Shown piece by piece: positions 11,398 to 40,490 of a stretch of DNA of 64,000 bases. The translations under genes were made by a program, and so were the position numbers. The DNA is from Chloroflexota bacterium (GTDB lineage: Bacteria > Chloroflexota > Dehalococcoidia > SHYD01 > JACQUQ01). Positions within the stretch are counted from its first letter, which is position 1. Every line of letters starts with the position of its first letter. Where the stretch lies: positions 142-64,141 of the forward strand of contig JACQUQ010000025.1 of the NCBI GenBank assembly GCA_016210175.1. Reading direction: 5' to 3'. The notes below the pieces were generated by a model. It was not told the origin of the DNA, did no database searches, and worked only from the letters and a program-made list of their open reading frames with translations.

Positions 11398-13680
11398 CTA
11401 CGTATTAAAGAGCGTAAGCTGCTCCGCCGCGACGGGTCTCCGCCGGGGTTTCCGGTGGCGAACCAGTTGGGCCAGTTGCTCTAACGTGACGACCTTCCCG
11501 GTCGCAGACCCATCTACGGGCTTGGACGGCGCTCCAAGGGCGGCAAACAGCGGCAATTCAGCCATTGCCCCGCGGTCAGGCATGGCCGGATGCGCTGTCC
11601 CATTGGAGAGGTCCGCCGCTCCTACCCCACCGTCCTCACACGCGCCAACCGCCAACAACTCCTCGGCCTCTTCCTCGCTGTGCCGAGCGTCGGCGAAGAG
11701 CGCTTCCAGCGATTGGGCGCCGTCATTCGGACCCCCACCAGGTTCCGCCATGCGGCGCGCTAGCGCGAGGTAGACATCCCCACCGTCCCCGTCAAGCGCG
11801 GCAAGCCCCTCTTCCGGCAACTCTCCCTCAATCATCAGCGAGGCCCGCGTCTTGGCCGCTACCAACGCCAGGGCTTCGGCTTGGAGCGTGCCGTCGTAGG
11901 TGAGGAAGGTGACTTCCACCGGCTGCCGCTGGCCGATGCGCCAGGACCGGCGGCTCGCCTGGCGCAGCACGTACACGGAATAATCGACCTCTGCCCACAC
12001 GATGCTGGGGAAGTCGACCAAGTCCAGGCCGGTCTGCACCAACCGCGGATTCGTGACCAGCACATCGATTCCATCCCGCACACGGGCGGTAACCCACTCC
12101 TCACGTCGTTCGGCAGCGACGGTGTCCGCCTTCAACACTGCGACCCGGAACCCTGCTTGCTCCAGCACGGTGCGAAGGCGGGGCGCAATGTCCCGCAGGT
12201 TTGTGTGCGTCACGTACACCAGCACGCGGCGGCCACGCTCCCGCTCCCGCTGAACCATTTCGACCAGGGTCTGCTCCTTGGGATACCGGCGGTTCTCCGG
12301 AAGCGCCGGGGCGTACCCCAGCACCTCACCCGTCTCTCCGTCCACGACCGTTTCCTCCCGCGTGCAGCCGTCCGGATAGGAGAGGAGCGCCTGGAGGTAT
12401 GTCCCCAGGAGGCGTTTGGACCCCGCCTGGAGCGCCTGCTGCACGGCCCGCCGCAGATCGGTCGCAAGTTGCGCGTAGCTCTCGGCCTGGGACAGTTCCC
12501 CTGGAACGTCTGCTTCAGCGAGCGGCACGAGGACGACGCGTTCCTGGTAGTCCGGCAGGTGCCCGGCCACGTCACGCAGCCGGAGAAAGACCGTGTTGCC
12601 AATGAGGTGGAACAGCACCGGCGGTGTGACGCCGGGCCGCTCGACCACCCGCGTCGGATAGGTGCGGCGTTTGGACTGGCGTCCATCGTCGAACCGGTCA
12701 TTCGGGTCCCGCTTGGTAATGCGGGCCAGGTAGCCGTATCGCGCCACCCACTTCGCCTCGTCGCCGTGGGCGAACTCGGTGCGGACGGCAGGGCTGAACC
12801 GGTACAGCAGGTGGAAGAGCGTCGAAGCATAGCCGCCCAGCAGCGTGCCGGTGAGGATGAGCGTCTTCGCGCAGGCTTCGGCCAGCGCCGCACCGGCCAG
12901 CCCCTGAGCAGTGCCCCTGCCTTTCAGCTCATGGACCTCATCGGCGATGAGCAGGTCGAAGTGCCCGCGCATCCGCCGTAGCAGGTAGTCGGCCAGCGGC
13001 GCCCGGCGCGGGCCGGTGTGGTCGGCCTCCCAGAGGGCGCCGCCGCAGGCGCTGCACCGCCGCTTCTTCTGCTCAAGCTCGACCAGGTTGAGGGGCACGC
13101 CCTCATCGTCAACAATCGCGGTGAAGCAGGACGGGCAGCAGAGGAGGCGCACGATGGCGCCGGCATCGTCCCGAGCCGCCATCCGGTCCGGGCCGCGTAC
13201 CATCCGGCTAATGGTCGCTGGCCGCCAGCGATAGCCAAGTTTGGCCTGCTCCCGGGAGCAGACCACGAACTGTGCAGGCCCATCCAGGTTGCGAACCCGT
13301 TCCAGGTCCCGGATCGTCCGAACGATGGCCACCTGGGCTGCCGGCACGGTGCGCTCGATCTCCCGGCGCCACTTTCGGACGAGGTGCGTCGGGCACAGGA
13401 CGAACACTCGGCGGCAGCCGGCCAGGTAGGCCGCAGCCGCGCCGATGTAGCTCTTGCCGGAGCCCATCTCGCCGACCAGGACGGTGCCCTGCTGGCGCTG
13501 GATGGAGAGGGCTGTGGCCCGTACCGCGTCCGCCTGGGCGCCCAGCGGCCGCCGCACCAGCCGCTGCAGGTCAAAGCCGGAGGTCCGGCGGGTCTCGGCG
13601 TCGTACAGCGGGGGATAGGTCCGCACGACGGCGTCGGTGATCTCGTCGCGACACTCATCCATTAGTTGGAATAGGTCCAT
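11398..13680 (-). CDS. SF2 (SNF2/DEAD-like) helicase with inserted zinc ribbon
   Basis: 760 aa with VGEMGSGKSY (Walker A), IADEVHELKG (DEVH), LTGTLLGG, and CCPSC...CSACGG between motifs I and II. The C-terminus ends EQLTLFNT. Confidence 0.8.
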   Translation of the reverse strand: MDLFQLMDECRDEITDAVVRTYPPLYDAETRRTSGFDLQRLVRRPLGAQADAVRATALSIQRQQGTVLVGEMGSGKSYIGAAAAYLAGCRRVFVLCPTHLVRKWRREIERTVPAAQVAIVRTIRDLERVRNLDGPAQFVVCSREQAKLGYRWRPATISRMVRGPDRMAARDDAGAIVRLLCCPSCFTAIVDDEGVPLNLVELEQKKRRCSACGGALWEADHTGPRRAPLADYLLRRMRGHFDLLIADEVHELKGRGTAQGLAGAALAEACAKTLILTGTLLGGYASTLFHLLYRFSPAVRTEFAHGDEAKWVARYGYLARITKRDPNDRFDDGRQSKRRTYPTRVVERPGVTPPVLFHLIGNTVFLRLRDVAGHLPDYQERVVLVPLAEADVPGELSQAESYAQLATDLRRAVQQALQAGSKRLLGTYLQALLSYPDGCTREETVVDGETGEVLGYAPALPENRRYPKEQTLVEMVQRERERGRRVLVYVTHTNLRDIAPRLRTVLEQAGFRVAVLKADTVAAERREEWVTARVRDGIDVLVTNPRLVQTGLDLVDFPSIVWAEVDYSVYVLRQASRRSWRIGQRQPVEVTFLTYDGTLQAEALALVAAKTRASLMIEGELPEEGLAALDGDGGDVYLALARRMAEPGGGPNDGAQSLEALFADARHSEEEAEELLAVGACEDGGVGAADLSNGTAHPAMPDRGAMAELPLFAALGAPSKPVDGSATGKVVTLEQLAQLVRHRKPRRRPVAAEQLTLFNT

Positions 13681-25574: not shown

Positions 25575-26150
25575 CTATCCAAAAAGGGAAAGCTGGTCGG
25601 ACGACGCTGCCCGCCCGCCCGGCTTGGGAGCAGGCGGAGTGGTGGGCGTGTCGGGCGTCGGGTTCGGGTCCGGCACGGGAACGGGGCTAGCGGACTTGCC
25701 CTTACCCCGACGCTGCTCCGGTGAGGCGGTGGCGGGCAGCGTGGAGGGATAGCGCGGCTGCACCTGCCAGCGCGCTGCAGCGTCAGCGAACAGACCGGGC
25801 ACTTGGTCGAGAGCAGCCGACAGGTCAGTGACCTCGACGGACCGCAGCAGCGGATCGCATCCCTCCATACCCACCGCCAGCACTGCCCGGTAGCCTATCC
25901 CAGCCTCCGGCTGGAGGGTGATAACGAGCTTGATCCCGCGCCGGGATTCGGTCGTTGTCGGGACGGCCGGAGTCGCCGTCGGCGCCTCGGCCATGGGCGG
26001 AACCCCCTGCTCCTCCGCGGGAATCCCTTCGTTACGGGTCACGCCGCGGTGCACGGAAATGGGCGACTGCGCGCAGCCGCAGCCGTCAACCGGCTGCGGC
26101 GCCTCGTCACTCGTCAGCAGGCGCTTGCCCTGCTCCTCGGGTGTGTCCAC
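25575..26150 (-). CDS. Pro/Ala-rich protein ending in a beta-clamp-binding-like peptide (PRTRC protein E-like)
   Basis: GTG 26150 has AAGGAG 7 nt upstream (alternative ATG at 25994). The C-terminus is ...GGRAASSDQLSLFG. Confidence 0.6.
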   Translation of the reverse strand: MDTPEEQGKRLLTSDEAPQPVDGCGCAQSPISVHRGVTRNEGIPAEEQGVPPMAEAPTATPAVPTTTESRRGIKLVITLQPEAGIGYRAVLAVGMEGCDPLLRSVEVTDLSAALDQVPGLFADAAARWQVQPRYPSTLPATASPEQRRGKGKSASPVPVPDPNPTPDTPTTPPAPKPGGRAASSDQLSLFG

Positions 26151-26257
26151 GAATGGTCTCCTTCTCGAGTGCGGGGCGGACGTTACCCCATCTGCTGGAT
26201 AATCGCCGCCCCGCACGTCGTGCTTTAGGCTGCGGCCGCCTCAGCTGTGACTTAACC

Positions 26258-33063: not shown

Positions 33064-33585
33064 CTACGCCGTCGCCTTTTCGCCGGGAGAGAAGATCATC
33101 GCTCGGCGTCCGAGCGCTGCCGCGACGTGGTTCTGATAGGCGCGCCGTGCCCGGATGGCGCCGCGGGCAGCAGGGTGGATCATCTGCAGGTGGCCGATGC
33201 CCTCCCGGACCAGGGTCCTGTGCACCGCCTGTCCGAGGCCTACGATGATCTCCCCCGCAGCCACGAGGGCTCGAATCCGCTCCAGCGCAACCTCGTCCAC
33301 GGTGAGCGGCTCTCCGTCGCGGTGGACATTGAGGTAAATCTGTTGCATGGGGTCGAGCCCCAGGACACGGAGGGCGTCGTACAGGGTTCGGGCAGCCAGC
33401 CGGCCGTCCTCCCACTGTACGCCGAGAGCGATGGCCCGGCGTGAGCGGCGGTCGCCAACAAAGACATACCGCCGTCTACCCGAGTCCATGCTGGTGCTGC
33501 CGCGGCCGCGGGTGGCCTGAGAGGGTGCTGGCGGCACCTCAGTCCTCTCCCGCCGCCGGCGACGAGGCATCGTAGATTCCGGCAT
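33064..33585 (-). CDS. Hypothetical protein
   Basis: 173 aa. GGGAGA lies 5 nt upstream of ATG 33585. Basic N-terminus. No confident family. Confidence 0.5.
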   Translation of the reverse strand: MPESTMPRRRRRERTEVPPAPSQATRGRGSTSMDSGRRRYVFVGDRRSRRAIALGVQWEDGRLAARTLYDALRVLGLDPMQQIYLNVHRDGEPLTVDEVALERIRALVAAGEIIVGLGQAVHRTLVREGIGHLQMIHPAARGAIRARRAYQNHVAAALGRRAMIFSPGEKATA

Positions 33586-33600
33586 ACTGATCTCCCTGGG

Positions 33601-34482
33601 TTACGCGACAAGCTCGTCCAGGCGGTTGACCCGCTTCGGGTACGGCAGGCTTGGAAGTCCCACGCGGACCGCCCTCTTCGCCGACCGTCGGCCGAGCTTG
33701 AAGAGGTAACGATGGTTCCCGGGATGGCGCAGACGCCGAACCCCGGCGGCAATGAGGGCACGCGGAAGCCACTCCGAGGGGTCCGCACCACGCCGGGGCG
33801 GTGCGCCGAACTCGCGCAGGAGCTGCTCCACGTAGGCGTGTCCCGAGTCGAGGGCACGGAGCTTTGCAAGCGCCCGCTCATTGAGCACCCGCCCGTCGGG
33901 GAGGACGAGCACGGTGCGGGGCGTCCCGCGCCCGGCGTAGACCGCGTTGGTCGCCTGATAGATCACCCCGATGTGGCCGGGGAAGACTAGCCGGCCGGTC
34001 GCGTCATGGCGGGCGACTGGATCGGAGAAGCTTACCACCCCTCGGATACCTTCGCCGGCGGCCAGACGGAACACCTGACCGAGGAACCAGCTCTCGGCAT
34101 TGGCAGGCGCACGGTCCGCCAGCACGAACCGCCCCAGTTCAAGTGACTCGGAGAAAGGCTCCAGGTCAGGGAAGGGACCGGTCAGCACCGCCCGCTGGAC
34201 GGGGACGCTCAGGACGGCGACCCCGAGCAGCGCGCCCCACCGGTCCCAGAGGCCGTACCGCAGGCGGCTGGCGACATAGCTGCCAGCATAGTGGTGGCGT
34301 TCCACGTACGCTTTGGCGGTCCGGTCGTCGACCGGAGCCACCTCGTACTGGCTCGCATCGAACCCGCCTTCCGAGCGGTGCCTCCACCGTGGCTGGCCGT
34401 CCTGCCAGCGCTGGCACCAGTCGCTCGACGGGGACACCTCCGGAGGGGTGAGGTCAAGGGGAAGCTGTCGAGGCAGGGACAC
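33601..34482 (-). CDS. GNAT-fold, Mom-like DNA-modification protein (tentative)
   Basis: 293 aa. AKAYVERHHYAGS...YGLW..GALLGVAV, LELGRFVL..APANAESWFLG, VSFSDP and GHIGVIYQATN match my memory of the phage Mom / acyltransferase-like family. GTG start. The N-terminus carries RQLPLDL. Confidence 0.4.
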   Translation of the reverse strand: MSLPRQLPLDLTPPEVSPSSDWCQRWQDGQPRWRHRSEGGFDASQYEVAPVDDRTAKAYVERHHYAGSYVASRLRYGLWDRWGALLGVAVLSVPVQRAVLTGPFPDLEPFSESLELGRFVLADRAPANAESWFLGQVFRLAAGEGIRGVVSFSDPVARHDATGRLVFPGHIGVIYQATNAVYAGRGTPRTVLVLPDGRVLNERALAKLRALDSGHAYVEQLLREFGAPPRRGADPSEWLPRALIAAGVRRLRHPGNHRYLFKLGRRSAKRAVRVGLPSLPYPKRVNRLDELVA

Positions 34483-34651: not shown

Positions 34652-35053
34652 CTACGGCTCCCTGCATGTGGGACATGGGTGGGCCATCGCGATGGCCTGG
34701 GCCCGAGCGATCGCTTTCCGGCTGCCCACCGGATACCGGTACATCGCCACGAGAGCGCCGTGGCCGCAATCCGGGCGCTGCACTTCCTGCATTCCCGTGA
34801 AGCGCCCGCGCCGCTGCCGACGGGTCGCACGGACGCGCGTTGGCGCTTCCTCACGAAAGCCGTCGATCAGGGAGCCGGGTGGAATGCGCTCCACCGTGAG
34901 CGCCTCCAGACCGTACCGCTCAAGGGTGCTCGCGATCAGCTCCCCCAGGTGGGTGCGGCATGTCTCCGGGTGCAGCAGCGCCGGATCCGATGGCACCAGG
35001 CGGAAGTCAGGCGGGTCAGCACAGGGAGGGAACCAGCAGCGGGCCGCGATCAC
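34652..35053 (-). CDS. Cys-rich hypothetical protein
   Basis: 133 aa. The start overlaps the radical-SAM stop (ATGA). Has CWFPPC near the N-terminus and HPCPTC at the C-terminus. Confidence 0.5.
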   Translation of the reverse strand: MIAARCWFPPCADPPDFRLVPSDPALLHPETCRTHLGELIASTLERYGLEALTVERIPPGSLIDGFREEAPTRVRATRRQRRGRFTGMQEVQRPDCGHGALVAMYRYPVGSRKAIARAQAIAMAHPCPTCREP

Positions 35054-35736
35054 GGCTGCCCGCTCCGGGCGTATCCTTCGTCAGCGGCGAGCGCCATCGC
35101 CGGGTTTGGGATGAGCCGCTGGTTGCGCGACCCACGCCACTCGCCCGCGCCTGTTGCCCGTGACCGAACGAATGGCCCATCGACAAGCAGGTCGGTGAGG
35201 CGAAGGACCTCATGCACCTCCGGTTCGCGCCGGCGGGCGAGGGCCTCAAGGGTGTAGCCGCTGTAGACGACGGTGTGGATGCCCGCCGCCTTGAGCTCGC
35301 GGAGGAGCGCCGCCAAGCCCTGCGGCTGGAACAGCGGCTCGCCCCCAAGCACCGTCACCCCATCCCTTGGGGTGCCCGACGGGTGCAGGAGGGCGGTCAC
35401 GACGTCGTCTACACTGAGCGCCACACCCCCGTCCGGGTCGTGCGTCTCCGGCACGTAGCAGCCAGGGCAGCGGATCGGGCAACCCTGGAGTTGCAGCACG
35501 CTCCGGCACCCCGGCCCGTCGACGACCGAGGCGTGGTAGATGCGGGCCACACGCAGCGTCGGTCCGGGCGTGTCCGTCGCTGCTGGTAGGGGCGTCGCGA
35601 CCAGCGGCCGCCCGCAATTGATCTCCCGCCCAGCCGGGAGGAGGTCGCCAGCGAGCGCCAACGCCTCCTCTACCGTGAGCCCTTCAAGGACTACCTTGCC
35701 GCTGGTGGGATCAAGGACCCAGGTGAACTCCGTCAC
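35050..35736 (-). CDS. NrdG/PflA-type radical SAM activating enzyme with N-terminal extension
   Basis: 228 aa with VVDGPGCRSVLQLQGCPIRCPGCYVPETH (CX3CX2C), LGGEPLFQ, YSGYTLEAL and LLVDGPFV...RGSRNQRLI. About 70 extra N-terminal residues. Confidence 0.8.
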   Translation of the reverse strand: MTEFTWVLDPTSGKVVLEGLTVEEALALAGDLLPAGREINCGRPLVATPLPAATDTPGPTLRVARIYHASVVDGPGCRSVLQLQGCPIRCPGCYVPETHDPDGGVALSVDDVVTALLHPSGTPRDGVTVLGGEPLFQPQGLAALLRELKAAGIHTVVYSGYTLEALARRREPEVHEVLRLTDLLVDGPFVRSRATGAGEWRGSRNQRLIPNPAMALAADEGYARSGQP

Positions 35737-35933
35737 TAGCCGCCCCTGGGCCGGGTCTGCGTCCGGACCTGCGGCCGCACGTAATACTCCGAGGTGTTCT
35801 GCTCCTGCCCGGGGTCGCCGAGCAGTTCCCTGGCGATCTTCGTGATATCATCGCAGGCCGGGCCGATGATGCCCTTCACTTGCAGTTCCAGCTTGCCCGT
35901 CGCAGGGTCGATCCTGAACTCGATTTCCGGCAT
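35736..35933 (-). CDS. DUF2997-like small protein
   Basis: 65 aa (MPEIEFRIDPATGKLELQVKGIIGPACDDITK...). AGGAGG lies 5 nt upstream of the start. Confidence 0.65.
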   Translation of the reverse strand: MPEIEFRIDPATGKLELQVKGIIGPACDDITKIARELLGDPGQEQNTSEYYVRPQVRTQTRPRGG

Positions 35934-35942
35934 AGCGCCCTC

Positions 35943-36338
35943 CTAGAAGCGGACCTGAATCTTGATTACGCTGCCCTCAACCGTCCGTCGAGCGGTGCCG
36001 CGCACCCGCCGCGCCACTTCCTGGACCACCTGCTCGCTGTAGGCGGTCCTGAGCTTCACCAGCAGCTGCCCGCTGTGCAGTGCCCGCTGGTCATACTCTG
36101 AGATGACCGGCACATACCCTTCTGGCGTCCGGCTGAATCCGATATCGTTGGAGGCGGCGCCCAGGAAGCGGCGGCGCACCACGATCTCCGCGGTTTCGGG
36201 CCGACGGTCACCCTGGTAGCCGAAGAGCGGGAGCGCTTCTCCTTCCTCGACCTCGGTATAACCGAGGGCAGCCAGCGCGGCCAGGAGCAGCCGCCTGTCT
36301 TTCAGCACGTAGTCCTGGAACATGAGGTATTTGCTCAT
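35943..36338 (-). CDS. DUF1257 (Ycf35-like) protein
   Basis: 131 aa (MSKYLMFQDYVLKDRRLLLAALAALGY...). GAGGAG upstream of the start. Sits between the AAA+ and DUF2997 genes, as in the conserved trio I recall. Confidence 0.65.
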   Translation of the reverse strand: MSKYLMFQDYVLKDRRLLLAALAALGYTEVEEGEALPLFGYQGDRRPETAEIVVRRRFLGAASNDIGFSRTPEGYVPVISEYDQRALHSGQLLVKLRTAYSEQVVQEVARRVRGTARRTVEGSVIKIQVRF

Positions 36339-36349
36339 GGCTCTCCTCG

Positions 36350-37957
36350 CTAGAATTCCATCAGCCGCTCACCGTCGGCGGCCGGCTTGCCCCGCACGGC
36401 GTCAATGGCCAGGTGCTCCTCCGCCCACCGGCGCAGCTCGTCGATCTCTTCGCGTTTCACCTCGCTCGTCGGCCGAATCGAACGGACCCGCCGCAAGATA
36501 TCCGCAGTCGTCAGGTCTCGTGCCCCGTCCATGAAGCTGTCCAGGAGCCCCGCTTTGACCGCTGCCTCGATCTCCGCGCCGGAGAAGCCATTGGCCGCCT
36601 CGGCCAGCTGCTCCAGCTCGAACGCCAGCGGGTCGCGGCCGCGCTTGGCAATGTGGACCCGGAAGATGTCGGCCCGATCCTCCGGGGTGGGCAGGTCCAC
36701 AAAGACAATCTGGCCGAAGCGTCCCTGCCGGGTTTGCTCGGGTGCCAGCTGCCGCACATCATTGGCCGTCGCGAAGACGAAGACCTCCTGTTGCTCGGCC
36801 ATCCAGTTCAGCAGGGCGCCGATGGTCCGCGCGGTCTCCCCTGCATCGGACTGAGCAGAAGACCGCAGGCCGCCGACGCCCTTCTCGAATTCGGACAGCC
36901 CGAGCACCGCTTTGAGCGTGGTGGCAATGGCGAGCGCCCGCCGGATGGACATGGCCGCCGAGCCGATGATGCCGCCTCCTTCGCCCATGACGGCGCCCAT
37001 GTCGAGATCCAGGAGCGGGCGGCCGAAAATCCCGGCGGCGATCTTCTTGCAGAGGTCCTTGCCACAGCCGGGCAGACCGACCAGGAGCACCCCCTTGGAG
37101 GGCTCGACGCCATAGGCGCGGGCAGCCGGGCTGAACGTGGCCGCTGCCTGCTGGAGCAGCGTCCGCAGGCTCCCGTAGCCGCCCAGATGGTCCACCGGCT
37201 CCGGATGGCTGTAGGAAAGGCTGCCGCTGCGACGGATCACCGCACGCTTCTCGTCAAGGATGAGCGGTACTGCCTCCGGAACGATACCGCGGTGGGTGAT
37301 CGCCGCTTTGGCGAGCGCATTCTCGATTTCCGTCTCCGTCAGGCCAAGGAGCGCCTGCGCGAGCTGCTCGCGGGTGCGTTCATCGACCTGAAGCGTCACG
37401 TCCGGGTTCTCGGCCAGGCGATCCAACTGAACATCGAGCAGCTTCGTCACCTCGCGCTCGTCCGGCAGCGGCAGGTCGATGCTCTTGATCTCTTTTTCCA
37501 GCGCGGGAATCTCCGGGAAGCTCGGTCCGACGAGCAGGACCGTGACCGCGCGCGTCTTGATCTGCCAGGCCAGCTCTCGCAGCCGCCGGACGAGTTGCGG
37601 CTCCTCCTGGCCGAAGGGGGCCAGGTACGGCGCGTAGTCACAGAGGATGTACAGGCCACGGTCGGCCTCGGCGATACGGTCGAGCACCGATAGAGGGTCC
37701 TCGGTATCCGGGACGAGCCGTTCTCCTTCGTGCGGTCCCAGGCCGGGACCGGCGACCTGACGGAGACCCTGCGTCCTGCTCCACAGGTAGAGCCCCTTCG
37801 GCTTATGCCGTTCGAGCTGGGCCACCGCGGTCATCAGGCGGCGGAACCGTACTTCCTCGAAGGTGGCGACGCTGATGAGGGGGTAGCGTGCGCGGATCAG
37901 GATGTCCAGCTCACGCACCAGCGCGTCCAGTCCGAAGGTGTCGCGTGATTGTGTCAT
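36350..37957 (-). CDS. Ycf46-like AAA+ ATPase with atypical Walker motifs
   Basis: 535 aa. AAGGAG upstream of the start. Has GVLLVGLPGCGKD (Walker A with Asp in place of Ser/Thr), VLGLSEFEKG (Walker B with Ser-Glu in place of Asp-Glu), FATAND (sensor 1) and GRFGQIVFVDLP. Confidence 0.8.
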   Translation of the reverse strand: MTQSRDTFGLDALVRELDILIRARYPLISVATFEEVRFRRLMTAVAQLERHKPKGLYLWSRTQGLRQVAGPGLGPHEGERLVPDTEDPLSVLDRIAEADRGLYILCDYAPYLAPFGQEEPQLVRRLRELAWQIKTRAVTVLLVGPSFPEIPALEKEIKSIDLPLPDEREVTKLLDVQLDRLAENPDVTLQVDERTREQLAQALLGLTETEIENALAKAAITHRGIVPEAVPLILDEKRAVIRRSGSLSYSHPEPVDHLGGYGSLRTLLQQAAATFSPAARAYGVEPSKGVLLVGLPGCGKDLCKKIAAGIFGRPLLDLDMGAVMGEGGGIIGSAAMSIRRALAIATTLKAVLGLSEFEKGVGGLRSSAQSDAGETARTIGALLNWMAEQQEVFVFATANDVRQLAPEQTRQGRFGQIVFVDLPTPEDRADIFRVHIAKRGRDPLAFELEQLAEAANGFSGAEIEAAVKAGLLDSFMDGARDLTTADILRRVRSIRPTSEVKREEIDELRRWAEEHLAIDAVRGKPAADGERLMEF

Positions 37958-38031: not shown

Positions 38032-39300
38032 CTAGATCTCAAGCGCACCCATGCGGTGCGGCTCGGTCAGGTCCCGCGCGTCGGCGTAGCAGAGCTCGAT
38101 GATGTCGCCGAGCACCTGGTCGATGGGACCAGGATTCCGCTGCTTCCTGCCCGCAGGCCGGGTGGCGAGGCTCTGCAGCTCAGCGATGAGCGTCTCCAAC
38201 TGCTGGTCGGACTGCCAGTTCATCAAACGGAACCAGCGCGCCAGCTCCCGCGCCCGCTTTGCTGACGTACCGTGTAGGTATCCATGCTTCTGCAGCGACG
38301 TGCGCATGGCGGTAGCCGCCTCGAAGATGGCAGCGTGGAGCTGCTTGGCCCCTTCCTCCAGCGGGCTCATCGCCTCCTGGAGACGTTCCTTCGCGGCCTC
38401 GACCTTGAGCCTGCGTAACCGCTCTTTGACCTCCGCTTCCCGCTGCCGCTCCTGCTCTTCCGCCTGAAGCCGCCGGCGAATGCGCTCCTCCTCGGCCCAG
38501 AACTCCTCCTGGACCAGGTGCTCGCGGGCTTCCTGACGCCGCCGTTCCAGGCGGAGCTGCGCCTCAGCCTCGTCCAGTTTGCGGCGCTCCTCGCGGGCCC
38601 GGCGCTGCTCCTCCAGCATCTCGCTGCCGAGCAGGATGACCCCGACGCGATAGCCCAGGGTCAGCTTCCGCTGCAGATCCTCCGGACCCGGCAGGGCAGC
38701 GAGGACGCCCCGCAGCACCGCGTCCTGAAAGCCCTCGGGAATGACGTGGCCTGTCGCCTCCAGCCGCCGGGCAGAGTCAGCAGCGAGCTGGAGGATTGTC
38801 GCGATGACCTCTTCCCGCACGGCATCGTACTGTTCGAGCACGCTCTCCTTGGCGCTCTCCAGCGCTGCCCGTGCGGCGTCGAACTCGCTCTCAAAGGCGT
38901 CAAAGGCGCGCCAGGGGATCCAGCGATAGGCCGGTGTTTCGAACAGCGTTTCTGTCAGGCGGAACCGATAGGAATAGCGGTGCAGGGCGGCGTGGGCGCG
39001 GGCAGCGGGCCGAAGCAGCGGAAGCCGGTAGCGGTCCGGCAGCAGGCCGCACCGCGGCGGCCGGAAGGCCAGGTCGGACCCGCGAGGCAGGCTGATGCCC
39101 AGCGCCTGCCAGTCGAGGCGCCGGTCCAGGAGACCGAAGCCGCTGGCATCGACGTTGACGAACACGCCGTCATCTTCCAGCACGGACAGGTCGAACGGGA
39201 GACGCTCGACCTGCTGCGGTTCCGCGCCGACGCGCTCGGCAGCGCGCTCGGCACGGGCTGTTGCGGTATGGTTCATGGGAAGGAGGGACGTATCAAGCAT
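38032..39300 (-). CDS. Hypothetical protein with central Arg/Glu coiled coil (possibly DUF3150-like)
   Basis: Start at Met57 of the track ORF (MLDTSLLPMNH...), overlapping the radC stop by 8 nt. 422 aa. Confidence 0.6.
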   Translation of the reverse strand: MLDTSLLPMNHTATARAERAAERVGAEPQQVERLPFDLSVLEDDGVFVNVDASGFGLLDRRLDWQALGISLPRGSDLAFRPPRCGLLPDRYRLPLLRPAARAHAALHRYSYRFRLTETLFETPAYRWIPWRAFDAFESEFDAARAALESAKESVLEQYDAVREEVIATILQLAADSARRLEATGHVIPEGFQDAVLRGVLAALPGPEDLQRKLTLGYRVGVILLGSEMLEEQRRAREERRKLDEAEAQLRLERRRQEAREHLVQEEFWAEEERIRRRLQAEEQERQREAEVKERLRRLKVEAAKERLQEAMSPLEEGAKQLHAAIFEAATAMRTSLQKHGYLHGTSAKRARELARWFRLMNWQSDQQLETLIAELQSLATRPAGRKQRNPGPIDQVLGDIIELCYADARDLTEPHRMGALEI

Positions 39301-39928
39301 GGGTAAGACCTCCCTTATGCTCCTGCTGGCTCCCCCGGGGCAGGGTCGGACCGGGCGCGGATTGCTTGTCACCTGCTGGCGCAGGGTCAGCGCCGGGCGG
39401 GGTATAGAGGCCGCGCTCGCGGAGACTGACGTAGCCGTCACCACCGATGACCACGTGGTCGAGCACATCGATACCCAGCAGATCGCCTGCGCGGGCGGCC
39501 TCTGCGGTCATTCTGATGTCGTCGGGCGAGGGAGTCGGGTCATTCGAAGGATGGTTATGTACCAGCACGACCGCCGCAGCGCCGGTGCGAACGGCCTCCC
39601 GGAAGCAGTCCGCCAGTCGGACCACGGCAGCATTGAGGCCGCCCTGGTAGACCAGGCTGGTACCCATGACCTGGTTTCGGGCATCCAGCAAGACCACGCG
39701 CAGCTGCTCCTGAGCGAGATCGGTCAGTTCCGGCCCGAGATAGGCGGCGATGTCAGCGGGGTTCCGTACCTGCTGGCGTTCGGCATGGACTGTCAGTCGG
39801 GCGATCTCATAGCGTCCGGAAAGCTCACCGAGGAGCCGCAGGTTTTCCCGCACGAGATGGAGCAGCGTTGCCGCATCGGGCGGGAGCAGGCTGACCTGAC
39901 GATCGTCCGGGTCGGTCGTGCGTCTCAC
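39293..39928 (-). CDS. radC: RadC-like JAB-domain protein
   Basis: 211 aa. VLVHNHPSNDPTPSPDDIRMT is the RadC JAMM-like signature. GTG start overlaps the upstream stop. Confidence 0.85.
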   Translation of the reverse strand: MRRTTDPDDRQVSLLPPDAATLLHLVRENLRLLGELSGRYEIARLTVHAERQQVRNPADIAAYLGPELTDLAQEQLRVVLLDARNQVMGTSLVYQGGLNAAVVRLADCFREAVRTGAAAVVLVHNHPSNDPTPSPDDIRMTAEAARAGDLLGIDVLDHVVIGGDGYVSLRERGLYTPPGADPAPAGDKQSAPGPTLPRGSQQEHKGGLTHA

Positions 39929-40209
39929 GCGGCCCGATTCCGGCGGGCAGGGGCAATGTCCCAGGCCACCGGAGCGTGATAGCGGTCGGAGAGGCGGCGG
40001 TCAAGGGCAGAGCGAAACCGCGACGCCTGTTCATTACTGTCCGCTGCGTACAGGTCACTCACCTGCCGGGCCAGGACATCGAAGTCCGTGCGGTCGTAAA
40101 ACTGGCCGACATAGGCCACGAAGGTCTGTGCGAGCCGGGCCGGGCTCTTCGTCCGGACGGCAAGATCCAGTTGCTGTGACGGCGACAGCGTTTCATAGAG
40201 CCTGGACAT
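39925..40209 (-). CDS. Hypothetical small protein
   Basis: Start at Met33 of the track ORF (MSRLYETLSPSQQLDLAV...). GGAGG lies 6 nt upstream. Confidence 0.55.
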   Translation of the reverse strand: MSRLYETLSPSQQLDLAVRTKSPARLAQTFVAYVGQFYDRTDFDVLARQVSDLYAADSNEQASRFRSALDRRLSDRYHAPVAWDIAPARRNRAA

Positions 40210-40228
40210 ATCACACCTCCAGAAAGCG

Positions 40229-40258
40229 AGAGCGGAGCCTCGTTTGAGGCTCCGCTCT
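40229..40258. other. Perfect 13-bp stem / 4-nt loop hairpin
   Basis: AGAGCGGAGCCTC gttt GAGGCTCCGCTCT. Lies 230 nt after the ssb stop and immediately upstream of the SD of the next minus-strand gene. Confidence 0.6.
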
Positions 40259-40490
40259 CTATGGGCTGGGTATCCGCGCCACTCAGGCAGCGCGCGGCGG
40301 GCCATCGGGCTCTGCTGCCCGGTTGTCGAGGCTGCGGTACACCATCAGCAGCCTGAGGTGCGGCAGCGTGGGGCTTGCCACCAGGACCATCTCCCTGGCG
40401 CGGGACTCCGAGGCTCGCCAGAAGCGGGGCACTGGTATATGGCACAGAAGCCGTGCCCCTACCTTCGAGAGGCGCAGCGGAAACGCCAGG

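Follow-up and report, generated by a model that had tools for sequence, protein, structure and literature searches.

A gene module on a mobile element of Chloroflexota and Acidobacteriota that joins an AAA+ ATPase and the DUF1257 and DUF2997 families to an activase-type radical SAM enzyme

In a 64,000-nucleotide (nt) stretch of DNA from a Chloroflexota bacterium (assembly GCA_016210175.1, contig JACQUQ010000025.1; hereafter the window, whose positions serve as coordinates), we analyzed a minus-strand gene cluster encoding an AAA+ ATPase, a DUF1257 protein, a DUF2997 protein, a radical S-adenosylmethionine (SAM) enzyme (hereafter rSAM), and a Cys/His protein of 133 amino acids (aa). The first four of these proteins and a 422-aa partner encoded directly upstream form a set that is inherited together on a mobile element. 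We put the odds at about even (probability roughly 0.5) that the cluster encodes a local variant of a widespread AAA+/radical SAM machine directed at proteins, and neither an activase of ribonucleotide reductase (RNR) nor a demonstrated DNA modifier.

An earlier note on this DNA, made from the sequence alone, had described the cluster as a single unit of five genes. The five open reading frames (ORFs) lie at the positions it gave, with spacers of 11, 9, -1, and -4 nt, and look co-transcribed; that they form one unit was borne out when the same gene order was found again in about 100 loci of two phyla; because these loci keep the order, the locus is more than a chance arrangement. The family names in the note (AAA+, DUF1257, DUF2997, and an NrdG-like type of radical SAM enzyme) hold in profile scans, and the motifs DGPGCR, CX3CX2C (CPIRCPGC), GGEP, GSRNQR, and CPTC were located in the sequences. 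Strong Shine-Dalgarno sequences had been claimed for the first four genes. Shine-Dalgarno-like sites precede the AAA+ (GGAG), DUF1257 (GAGGAG), and DUF2997 (AGGAGG) genes, whereas the rSAM gene has only a weaker AGGGG ahead of its GTG start. An Rfam scan gave no match at the locus, a repeat search returned nothing meaningful there, and a scan for promoters and terminators gave no signal exceeding the shuffled background. The features of the cluster and of the upstream partner are:

38032-39300, minus strand: 422-aa coiled-coil partner protein (GGGAGG 8 nt ahead of the ATG; called product 422 aa)
38035-38055, minus strand: C-terminal tail RMGALEI of the 422-aa protein (tail comparison in the family)
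36350-37957, minus strand: AAA+ ATPase, 535 aa (PF00004, phrog_8638)
37055-37078, minus strand: Walker A GLPGCGKD of the ATPase, with Asp instead of the usual Ser/Thr
36881-36901, minus strand: Walker B GLSEFEK of the ATPase, with Ser-Glu instead of Asp-Glu
36353-36370, minus strand: C-terminal tail ERLMEF of the ATPase (tail comparison)
35943-36338, minus strand: DUF1257 (Ycf35-family) protein, 131 aa (PF06868)
35994-36008, minus strand: RVRGT loop with Gly114 in DUF1257 (alignment and AlphaFold2 model)
35736-35933, minus strand: DUF2997 protein, 65 aa (PF11211)
35853-35873, minus strand: GIIGPAC, the invariant G-x2-G-x2-C motif of DUF2997 (alignment)
35050-35736, minus strand: rSAM, 228 aa (PF13353, PF04055)
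35503-35520, minus strand: DGPGCR of the rSAM (motif location)
35458-35481, minus strand: CX3CX2C cluster motif of the rSAM (motif location)
35602-35736, minus strand: N-terminal domain of the rSAM, about 45 aa, a DUF2997 homologue (hhalign)
35605-35619, minus strand: invariant N-C-x-R-P motif of the rSAM N-domain (alignment)
34652-35053, minus strand: 133-aa Cys/His protein (ORF, GC content at third codon positions, homologues)

The rSAM, the ATPase, and an alignment of DUF1257 served as queries in scans of species-representative genomes, which yielded the approximately 100 loci, and gene order was assessed with tblastn and purpose-built hidden Markov models. The rSAM and AAA+ queries led to 8 and 14 loci, respectively, with identical gene order. 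Most loci are from Chloroflexota (Anaerolineae, Dehalococcoidia, and Thermomicrobiales) and Acidobacteriota (Pyrinomonadaceae, Blastocatellia, and Chloracidobacterium), and a cultured carrier is Nitrolancea hollandica, whose DUF1257 is 75% identical. The fixed order is 422-aa protein, AAA+, DUF1257, DUF2997, and rSAM. Presence was counted in the 77 DUF1257-centered loci, restricted to those whose contig leaves room. DUF2997 is present in 68/69 loci, a full-length rSAM in 63/69, the AAA+ in 57/59, and, immediately ahead of the AAA+ gene, the 422-aa protein in 49/52; the 133-aa protein was found in 1/66 species-representative loci, plus one sub-lineage.

These counts redraw the unit of the earlier note. 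Its first four genes are the core in most loci, whereas the fifth, the Cys-rich ORF, is missing from most and is a rare add-on of a sub-lineage. The rSAM had been regarded as a local extension of an AAA+/DUF1257/DUF2997 trio; in this lineage it is a fixed member of the module. The conserved 422-aa partner upstream had been missed altogether. The longest ORF of its gene extends to 39468, with the real start (M57) at 39300. The unit extends upstream in this direction: the gene overlaps the stop of RadC by 8 nt and RadC overlaps the gene for a 126-aa protein by 4 nt. Searches with the 422-aa protein gave no match in Pfam, PHROG, or the PDB, and its PDB profile search returned noise.

The rSAM matches PF13353 (Fer4_12) with 102 bits and PF04055 with 35 bits. 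Its closest named model is NrdG (TIGR02491) with 106 bits, under the cut-off of 126.1; phrog_626 is also matched. Against the PRK11121 model it scores 70.4, with a cut-off of 199, and it stays under every curated NrdG or PflA cut-off. That the enzyme is of the glycyl-radical-activase type, as first proposed, agrees with its closest solved structure, the activating enzyme of pyruvate formate-lyase (PFL-AE; E 6e-19), where the alignment spans the DGPGxR loop and the cluster motif. The motifs of the activase superfamily (CX3CX2C, the DGPGxR loop, and GGEP) are present. Models of activases are matched at E 1.7e-30 and the QueE-type model TIGR04349 at E 4e-7, with a weak match to phrog_2076 as well.

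The window encodes no glycyl radical enzyme, as the note had stated, and an NrdD is absent from both the window and 105 module loci. To look for glycyl radical enzymes in relatives, we collected ORFs of at least 300 aa with a C-terminal RVxG[YFW]. None was found in the 105 module loci, save one spurious off-frame match. In contrast, such ORFs are present in 21 of the 24 non-module loci obtained with the same rSAM query; they are mostly of the size of glycyl radical enzymes and carry a motif of the PFL type. The module loci contain no substrate with RVxG[FWY] on a glycyl-radical domain; DUF1257 offers only an L/V-x-G-T loop in an unrelated fold. Because its scores stay under the cut-offs, its N-domain is homologous to DUF2997, and a glycyl-radical partner is absent from the 105 module loci, we conclude that the rSAM is a dedicated member of the module and not an activase beside a canonical partner.

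An extra N-terminal domain of about 70 aa had been reported for the rSAM. The extra domain exists, and its first approximately 45 residues are a homologue of DUF2997 (hhalign probability 96.7%, E 3.4e-10). With larger, independent alignments (58 N-domains versus 70 DUF2997 proteins) the probability was 95.1% (E 3e-8), whereas the controls (DUF1257, the 133-aa protein, the 422-aa protein, and a reversed DUF2997 alignment) all remained at or below 2.6%. The two are related at the profile level only, and the N-domain does not contain the G-x2-G-x2-C of DUF2997 but has its own invariant N-C-x-R-P instead. Two related loci carry altered rSAM genes. In a Pyrinomonadaceae metagenome-assembled genome (MAG; L008 1103-5827), the module rSAM gene is split by an insertion of about 4 kb. 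Judged by eye, this insertion contains recombinase-like ORFs as well as another rSAM, a paralogue of full length that has an N-domain too. In a Dehalococcoidia MAG (L037 8237-9370), the rSAM and the 173-aa protein otherwise encoded next to DnaN form a single 377-aa ORF, which is either a true fusion or a lost stop codon.

DUF1257 matches PF06868 with 32.3 bits (cut-off 22.2) and DUF2997 matches PF11211 with 41.7 bits (cut-off 24.1). The G-x2-G-x2-C motif of DUF2997 is invariant. The AlphaFold2 model of DUF1257 (predicted local distance difference test score, pLDDT, of 91) comprises a sheet, a long helix, and a C-terminal hairpin; it had no fold match in the PDB (best E 0.7), and PDB sequence-profile searches with DUF1257 and DUF2997 gave noise only. 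Invariant in the lineage are the N-terminal MSKY, D65-x-G-F, Y100, and Gly114. In the model, Gly114 is placed in the L/V-x-G-T loop, which joins the long helix and the C-terminal hairpin. This Gly is kept in 76/77 loci (76/76 proteins of the rSAM lineage) and absent in three relatives without an rSAM, namely the L122 protein and both phage proteins. The co-occurrence of Gly114 and the rSAM in these alignments is suggestive.

A search for fusions of DUF2997 among 1.84 billion representatives returned nearly exclusively stand-alone proteins of 60-70 aa, along with a few likely chimeras and repetitive giants. In two metagenomic proteins, a DUF2997 segment is joined to redox-type sequence (flavin-reductase-like in P0211 and 2Fe-2S-domain-like in P0207, both by eye); these may be assembly chimeras. 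At one locus (L042 3572-6373), an ORF for a group II intron-type reverse transcriptase (reverse-transcriptase-like by eye) lies inside DUF1257.

The 133-aa ORF is a real gene: its GC content at third codon positions is 0.80, and it has 40 homologue clusters with 62-83% identity. Within its sub-lineage, the gene always overlaps the rSAM stop by 4 nt. The protein had no family match in the profile libraries, and its model, confident for residues 80-133 only, had no fold match in the PDB. In the model C96, H98, C127, and C130 are brought together, and a metal site formed by these residues is plausible. We also considered a Com-like zinc regulator of Mom translation; this was rejected, as the protein tracks the rSAM and not Mom.

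The ATPase matches PF00004 with 53.7 bits and phrog_8638 across residues 11-514 with E 7e-94. It belongs to the classical clade, and its top PDB matches are to the D2 domain of p97/VCP (Cdc48; E 1e-28, residues 279-520); the N-terminal region of about 280 aa is without an assigned fold. The lineage has a swapped pair of Walker residues (GKD in 56/57 and SE in 56/57), departing from the canonical GK[ST] and hhhhDE, while the Walker Lys and the catalytic Glu are retained. The phage homologues keep GKS or GKT and DE. In the alignment, GKD together with SE looks like a compensated swap of the residues that coordinate Mg.

The extreme C-terminus links the ATPase to its neighbors. The ATPase ends in ERLMEF, with an x-E-hydrophobic end in 57/57 full-length relatives, and the 422-aa protein ends in RMGALEI, with ALE[LFIV] in 49/49 loci and [AS]LE[LIVF] in 120/120 family members; the consensus common to both is R-x2-3-[LMI]-E-hydrophobic. 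The ending [LMIA][LMI]E[LIVFM] occurs in 38 of 1547 ORFs (at least 70 aa long, taken from 24 related loci and the window), and 36 of these 38 encode the ATPase or the 422-aa protein. From one of the two remaining ORFs we traced a third tail-bearing family (121-163 aa, 10 Acidobacteriota loci), which ends in [LI]-D-[AS]-[LI]-E-[LI]; its gene follows the rSAM in some loci and separates the 422-aa gene from that of the ATPase in others. One of its members reaches the WGR threshold (PF05406, 22.6 bits). That a motor and its exchangeable accessories have the same terminal peptide suggests a common site for docking or recognition.

A mobile element found in Chloroflexota and Acidobacteriota carries the module within its replication operon, and the entire window represents a large integrative element. 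Across the Chloroflexota loci a longer gene order is kept: UvrD-type helicase, primase, SSB, 126-aa protein, RadC, module, variable slot, 173-aa protein, and DnaN. The window also encodes a SNF2 helicase, a Pol III alpha-type polymerase, an ImuB-like protein, two tyrosine recombinases, a DUF6094 methyltransferase, a ubiquitin-like cassette, a Tn7-like insertion, and Tad-type secretion genes. In several MAGs the whole module occurs three times, on separate contigs or at separate sites (L039/L040/L062; L090/L093/L125; L101/L106/L107; L103/L111/L124), which is consistent with a proliferating mobile element. The source sequence was located only in four groundwater metagenome DNA runs. The genes flanking the module in the window are:

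39925-40305, minus strand: 126-aa protein, upstream coupled gene (4-nt overlap with RadC)
39293-39928, minus strand: RadC, upstream coupled gene (PF04002, 131 bits)
33601-34482, minus strand: Mom-family gene, a neighbor outside the conserved unit (PF25680; 169-nt gap to the cluster)
33064-33585, minus strand: 173-aa basic protein without a known family (ORF, conserved before dnaN)

The slot between the rSAM and the 173-aa protein and DnaN differs by locus: it is empty or holds the 133-aa protein, Mom, a pair of PAPS-reductase-like and TGT-like proteins, or insertions. The Mom assignment was confirmed in the window (PF25680 85.3 bits, cut-off 27.1; phrog_1384, E 1.8e-31), and, apart from a remnant in L055, Mom was found in just 4 distinct loci besides the window. 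The earlier note had drawn a possible role in DNA modification from the adjacency of Mom; since this adjacency is occasional and the content of the slot varies, it permits no functional inference about the module. The variable slot collects cargo of the DNA-modification type.

We favor a protein-directed machine because the closest solved relative of the rSAM, PFL-AE, aligns with it across the DGPGxR loop and the core of the ATPase is nearest to the D2 domain of the p97/Cdc48 unfoldase. The core partner of the ATPase ring would consist of DUF1257 and DUF2997. The rSAM would dock through its DUF2997-like domain on the surface that DUF2997 uses, most likely on DUF1257, and the docked enzyme would cleave SAM and take a hydrogen atom from one of the proteins in the complex and not from a nucleotide. 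Gly114 in the loop of DUF1257 is the best candidate for the site of abstraction, though we think it rather unlikely to be the actual one; alternatively, the rSAM may act on a client held by the ATPase. The R-x2-3-[LMI]-E-hydrophobic tail would be a docking or recognition tag that recruits accessories, in the window the 422-aa protein and in relatives the WGR-like, probably DNA-binding protein, and the tail-tagged proteins would be adaptors or clients of the ATPase. The 133-aa protein would be an optional, probably metal-binding accessory of the rSAM. Given the operon setting, we favor a role in establishing or replicating the element as what the module may do. A more far-reaching version, which we consider quite improbable, is that DUF1257 is a new kind of small carrier of a backbone radical, which the rSAM would generate there after docking through its DUF2997-like domain, and that the ATPase with its tail-tagged adaptors uses or resets an oxygen-sensitive mark at Gly114 as a switch for replication or establishment of the element.

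Several observations weigh against this account. The L/V-x-G-T motif around Gly114 differs from the canonical RVxG[FWY], and the fold of DUF1257 is not the barrel of glycyl radical enzymes. Many of the hosts (Pyrinomonadaceae, Chloracidobacterium, Nitrolancea) are aerobes, in which a stable glycyl radical would be short-lived. The correlation between Gly114 and the rSAM is confounded by phylogeny, as all 76 proteins belong to one clade. The phage trio has neither the rSAM, the shared tail, nor the Walker swap, so the machine can work without radical chemistry. The receptor of the tail and the partner of the DUF2997-like domain are assignments that we infer. In addition, the slot often holds genes of the DNA-modification type (Mom, PAPS-reductase-like, weakly TGT-like) and one accessory is WGR-like, which leaves room for a link to nucleic acids.

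Such a link is the core of one alternative, in which the rSAM and the module make or install a modified base on the DNA of the element, together with Mom-type modifiers, for anti-restriction. The Mom-family gene 169 nt downstream, the slot of relatives with its PAPS-reductase-like (phrog_424) and weakly TGT/DpdA-like (phrog_887) proteins, the place of the module among replication genes, the weak QueE-type matches of the rSAM (TIGR04349 and phrog_2076), and the WGR-like tail-tagged accessory all fit it. However, the slot is variable or empty and Mom is rare, the trio occurs in phages without any rSAM or Mom, and the rSAM is far nearer to the glycyl-radical activases than to QueE (E 1.7e-30 versus 4e-7). 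Furthermore, the rSAM is accompanied by a protein unfoldase and by small proteins, and no base-exchange or nucleotide-binding enzyme is among them. We judge this alternative unlikely. Somewhat less unlikely, but still doubtful, is a conflict system for defense or anti-defense, in which the ATPase and tail-tagged adaptors sense or dismantle proteins of an invader or of the host defense and the rSAM arms or disarms the system. This role concerns the biology and can coexist with a protein-directed mechanism. The core of the ATPase is matched by the PADLOC IetA models (E 3e-21) and by the NCBIfam model 'anti-phage ATPase IteA' (61 bits), mobile elements carry the module and phages the trio, the adjacent cargo varies, and some MAGs have several copies. 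Yet the 61 bits compare with a cut-off of 510 and reflect the generic AAA core only, no IetS-like protease is present, PADLOC gave no further significant match (those to viperin and Cas8c are too weak for use), and the setting is a replication operon and not a defense island.

A redox function appears less probable again. Here DUF1257 and DUF2997 would be a small pair that transfers electrons or handles Fe-S for Fe-S proteins, namely Fed7 in cyanobacteria and, in the module, the cluster of the rSAM, with the radical substrate encoded outside the operon. The cyanobacterial duf2997-ycf35-fed7 cluster (PMC4284462) speaks for it, as do the invariant Cys of DUF2997, the other invariant Cys in the rSAM N-domain, and the apparent joining of a DUF2997 domain to a flavin-reductase-like region in P0211. 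On the other hand, the DUF1257 of the window has no Cys and no metal-site pattern, a single fusion may be an assembly artefact, and the phage trios have no Fe-S partner. Least probable by far, and in our estimate close to dismissal, is an ordinary activase of class III RNR (NrdG) whose NrdD is encoded elsewhere in the genome. NrdG is indeed the top-scoring named model for the rSAM, but at 106 bits the score is under the cut-off, the DUF2997-like N-domain is additional, and the enzyme has a fixed position in a module of about 100 loci, none with a glycyl radical enzyme, whereas most non-module relatives adjoin one.

Among the closest known systems are the phage trios. The claim that the AAA+/DUF1257/DUF2997 trio recurs elsewhere proved correct: Rhizobium phage RHph_I4 and Rhodobacter phage RcKickapoo both carry it and lack an rSAM. 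The phage ATPases fall into the same PHROG over their full length, and the same two small families follow in the same order. However, the phage forms have canonical GKS/DE, are without rSAM, shared tail, and Gly114, and have an unrelated gene of 212-230 aa inserted. Scans of viral contigs with the rSAM and AAA+ queries gave no matches; the scan with a phage DUF1257 query matched one contig. The same two small-protein families are also encoded in cyanobacteria and plastids, where a cluster of DUF2997, ycf35 (DUF1257), and fed7 has been reported (PMC4284462), as is Ycf46, a functionally unexplained AAA+ ATPase to which the earlier note likened the ATPase of the module; it is described as KaiC-interacting and as a stress-induced operon member (PMC13683863). 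The module differs from these in its location on a mobile element of non-phototrophs, its rSAM, its 422-aa partner with the shared tail, and its exchanged Walker residues.

With PflA-PflB, NrdG-NrdD, and GrcA, the module shares a small, single-cluster rSAM with CX3CX2C, an N-terminal DGPGxR loop, GGEP, and a C-terminal S-x-NQ. It differs from them in the DUF2997-like N-domain, in having no glycyl radical enzyme in the window or the 105 loci, in scoring under all activase cut-offs, and in its partners, an AAA+ ATPase and small proteins. The Cdc48/p97/VAT unfoldases bind cofactors through short terminal peptides (HbYX tails and PUB/PUL-binding tails). The p97 D2-like core and the conserved extreme C-terminal peptide on both the ATPase and accessory proteins resemble this arrangement, whereas the single AAA module, the unrelated N-region, the LE-hydrophobic tail, and GKD/SE do not; no proteasome or known cofactor domains were found at the locus. 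The likeness to IetAS lies in the AAA core (PADLOC IetA; NF042959, 61 bits), and apart from the low score and the absence of a neighboring IetS protease, the N-region and the partners are different.

Our full-text literature search found no paper on DUF1257 or DUF2997 that addresses their function and no published description of the module. To our knowledge, Ycf35/DUF1257 has been unexplained in cyanobacterial and plastid genomes for decades. If our account is true, a type of rSAM whose only known role is to activate glycyl-radical enzymes of metabolism is coupled to an ATPase that unfolds proteins and to two orphan families. The module is not unique to the source genome, and its value lies in its replication context and in the handles it offers: the DUF2997-like putative docking domain on the rSAM, the tail shared by the ATPase and accessories, the 422-aa partner, the Cys/His add-on, the Walker A/B swap that runs through the lineage and looks compensated, the cultured carrier Nitrolancea hollandica, and the place in the replication operon of a mobile element. 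The putative docking features of its parts make the mechanism testable.

Some further observations concern the genes around the module. A recurrent pair in the variable slot consists of a PAPS-reductase-like protein (phrog_424, E 7.5e-36) and a weakly TGT/DpdA-like protein (phrog_887, E 3.6e-4); it adjoins the rSAM in L033 9384-11766, L034 8677-11014, and L051 7736-8944, and could be a DNA base-exchange cassette. The 173-aa protein is kept between the module and dnaN in 13 fetched loci, some of which are duplicates of one contig. An assignment of this protein (33064-33585) as UDG-like was unsupported, as only compositionally biased matches were obtained.

Several unrelated proteins of the element family carry a C-terminal peptide, QL[SDT]LF, that resembles sliding-clamp-binding peptides (QLSLFG, QLTLFNT, QLDLFA, QLSLFEHE). 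The carriers are encoded in the window at 25575-26216 and 11398-13680, both on the minus strand, and in relatives at L033 10642-11766, L034 9680-11014, L036 9055-10287, and L037 9377-10129. The DnaN of the element may be a docking hub for many element proteins, which would parallel the LE-hydrophobic tail of the module. In L051-L054, an ORF for a group II intron-type reverse transcriptase (RVT_1 and GIIM; L051 685-2460) is located inside RadC.

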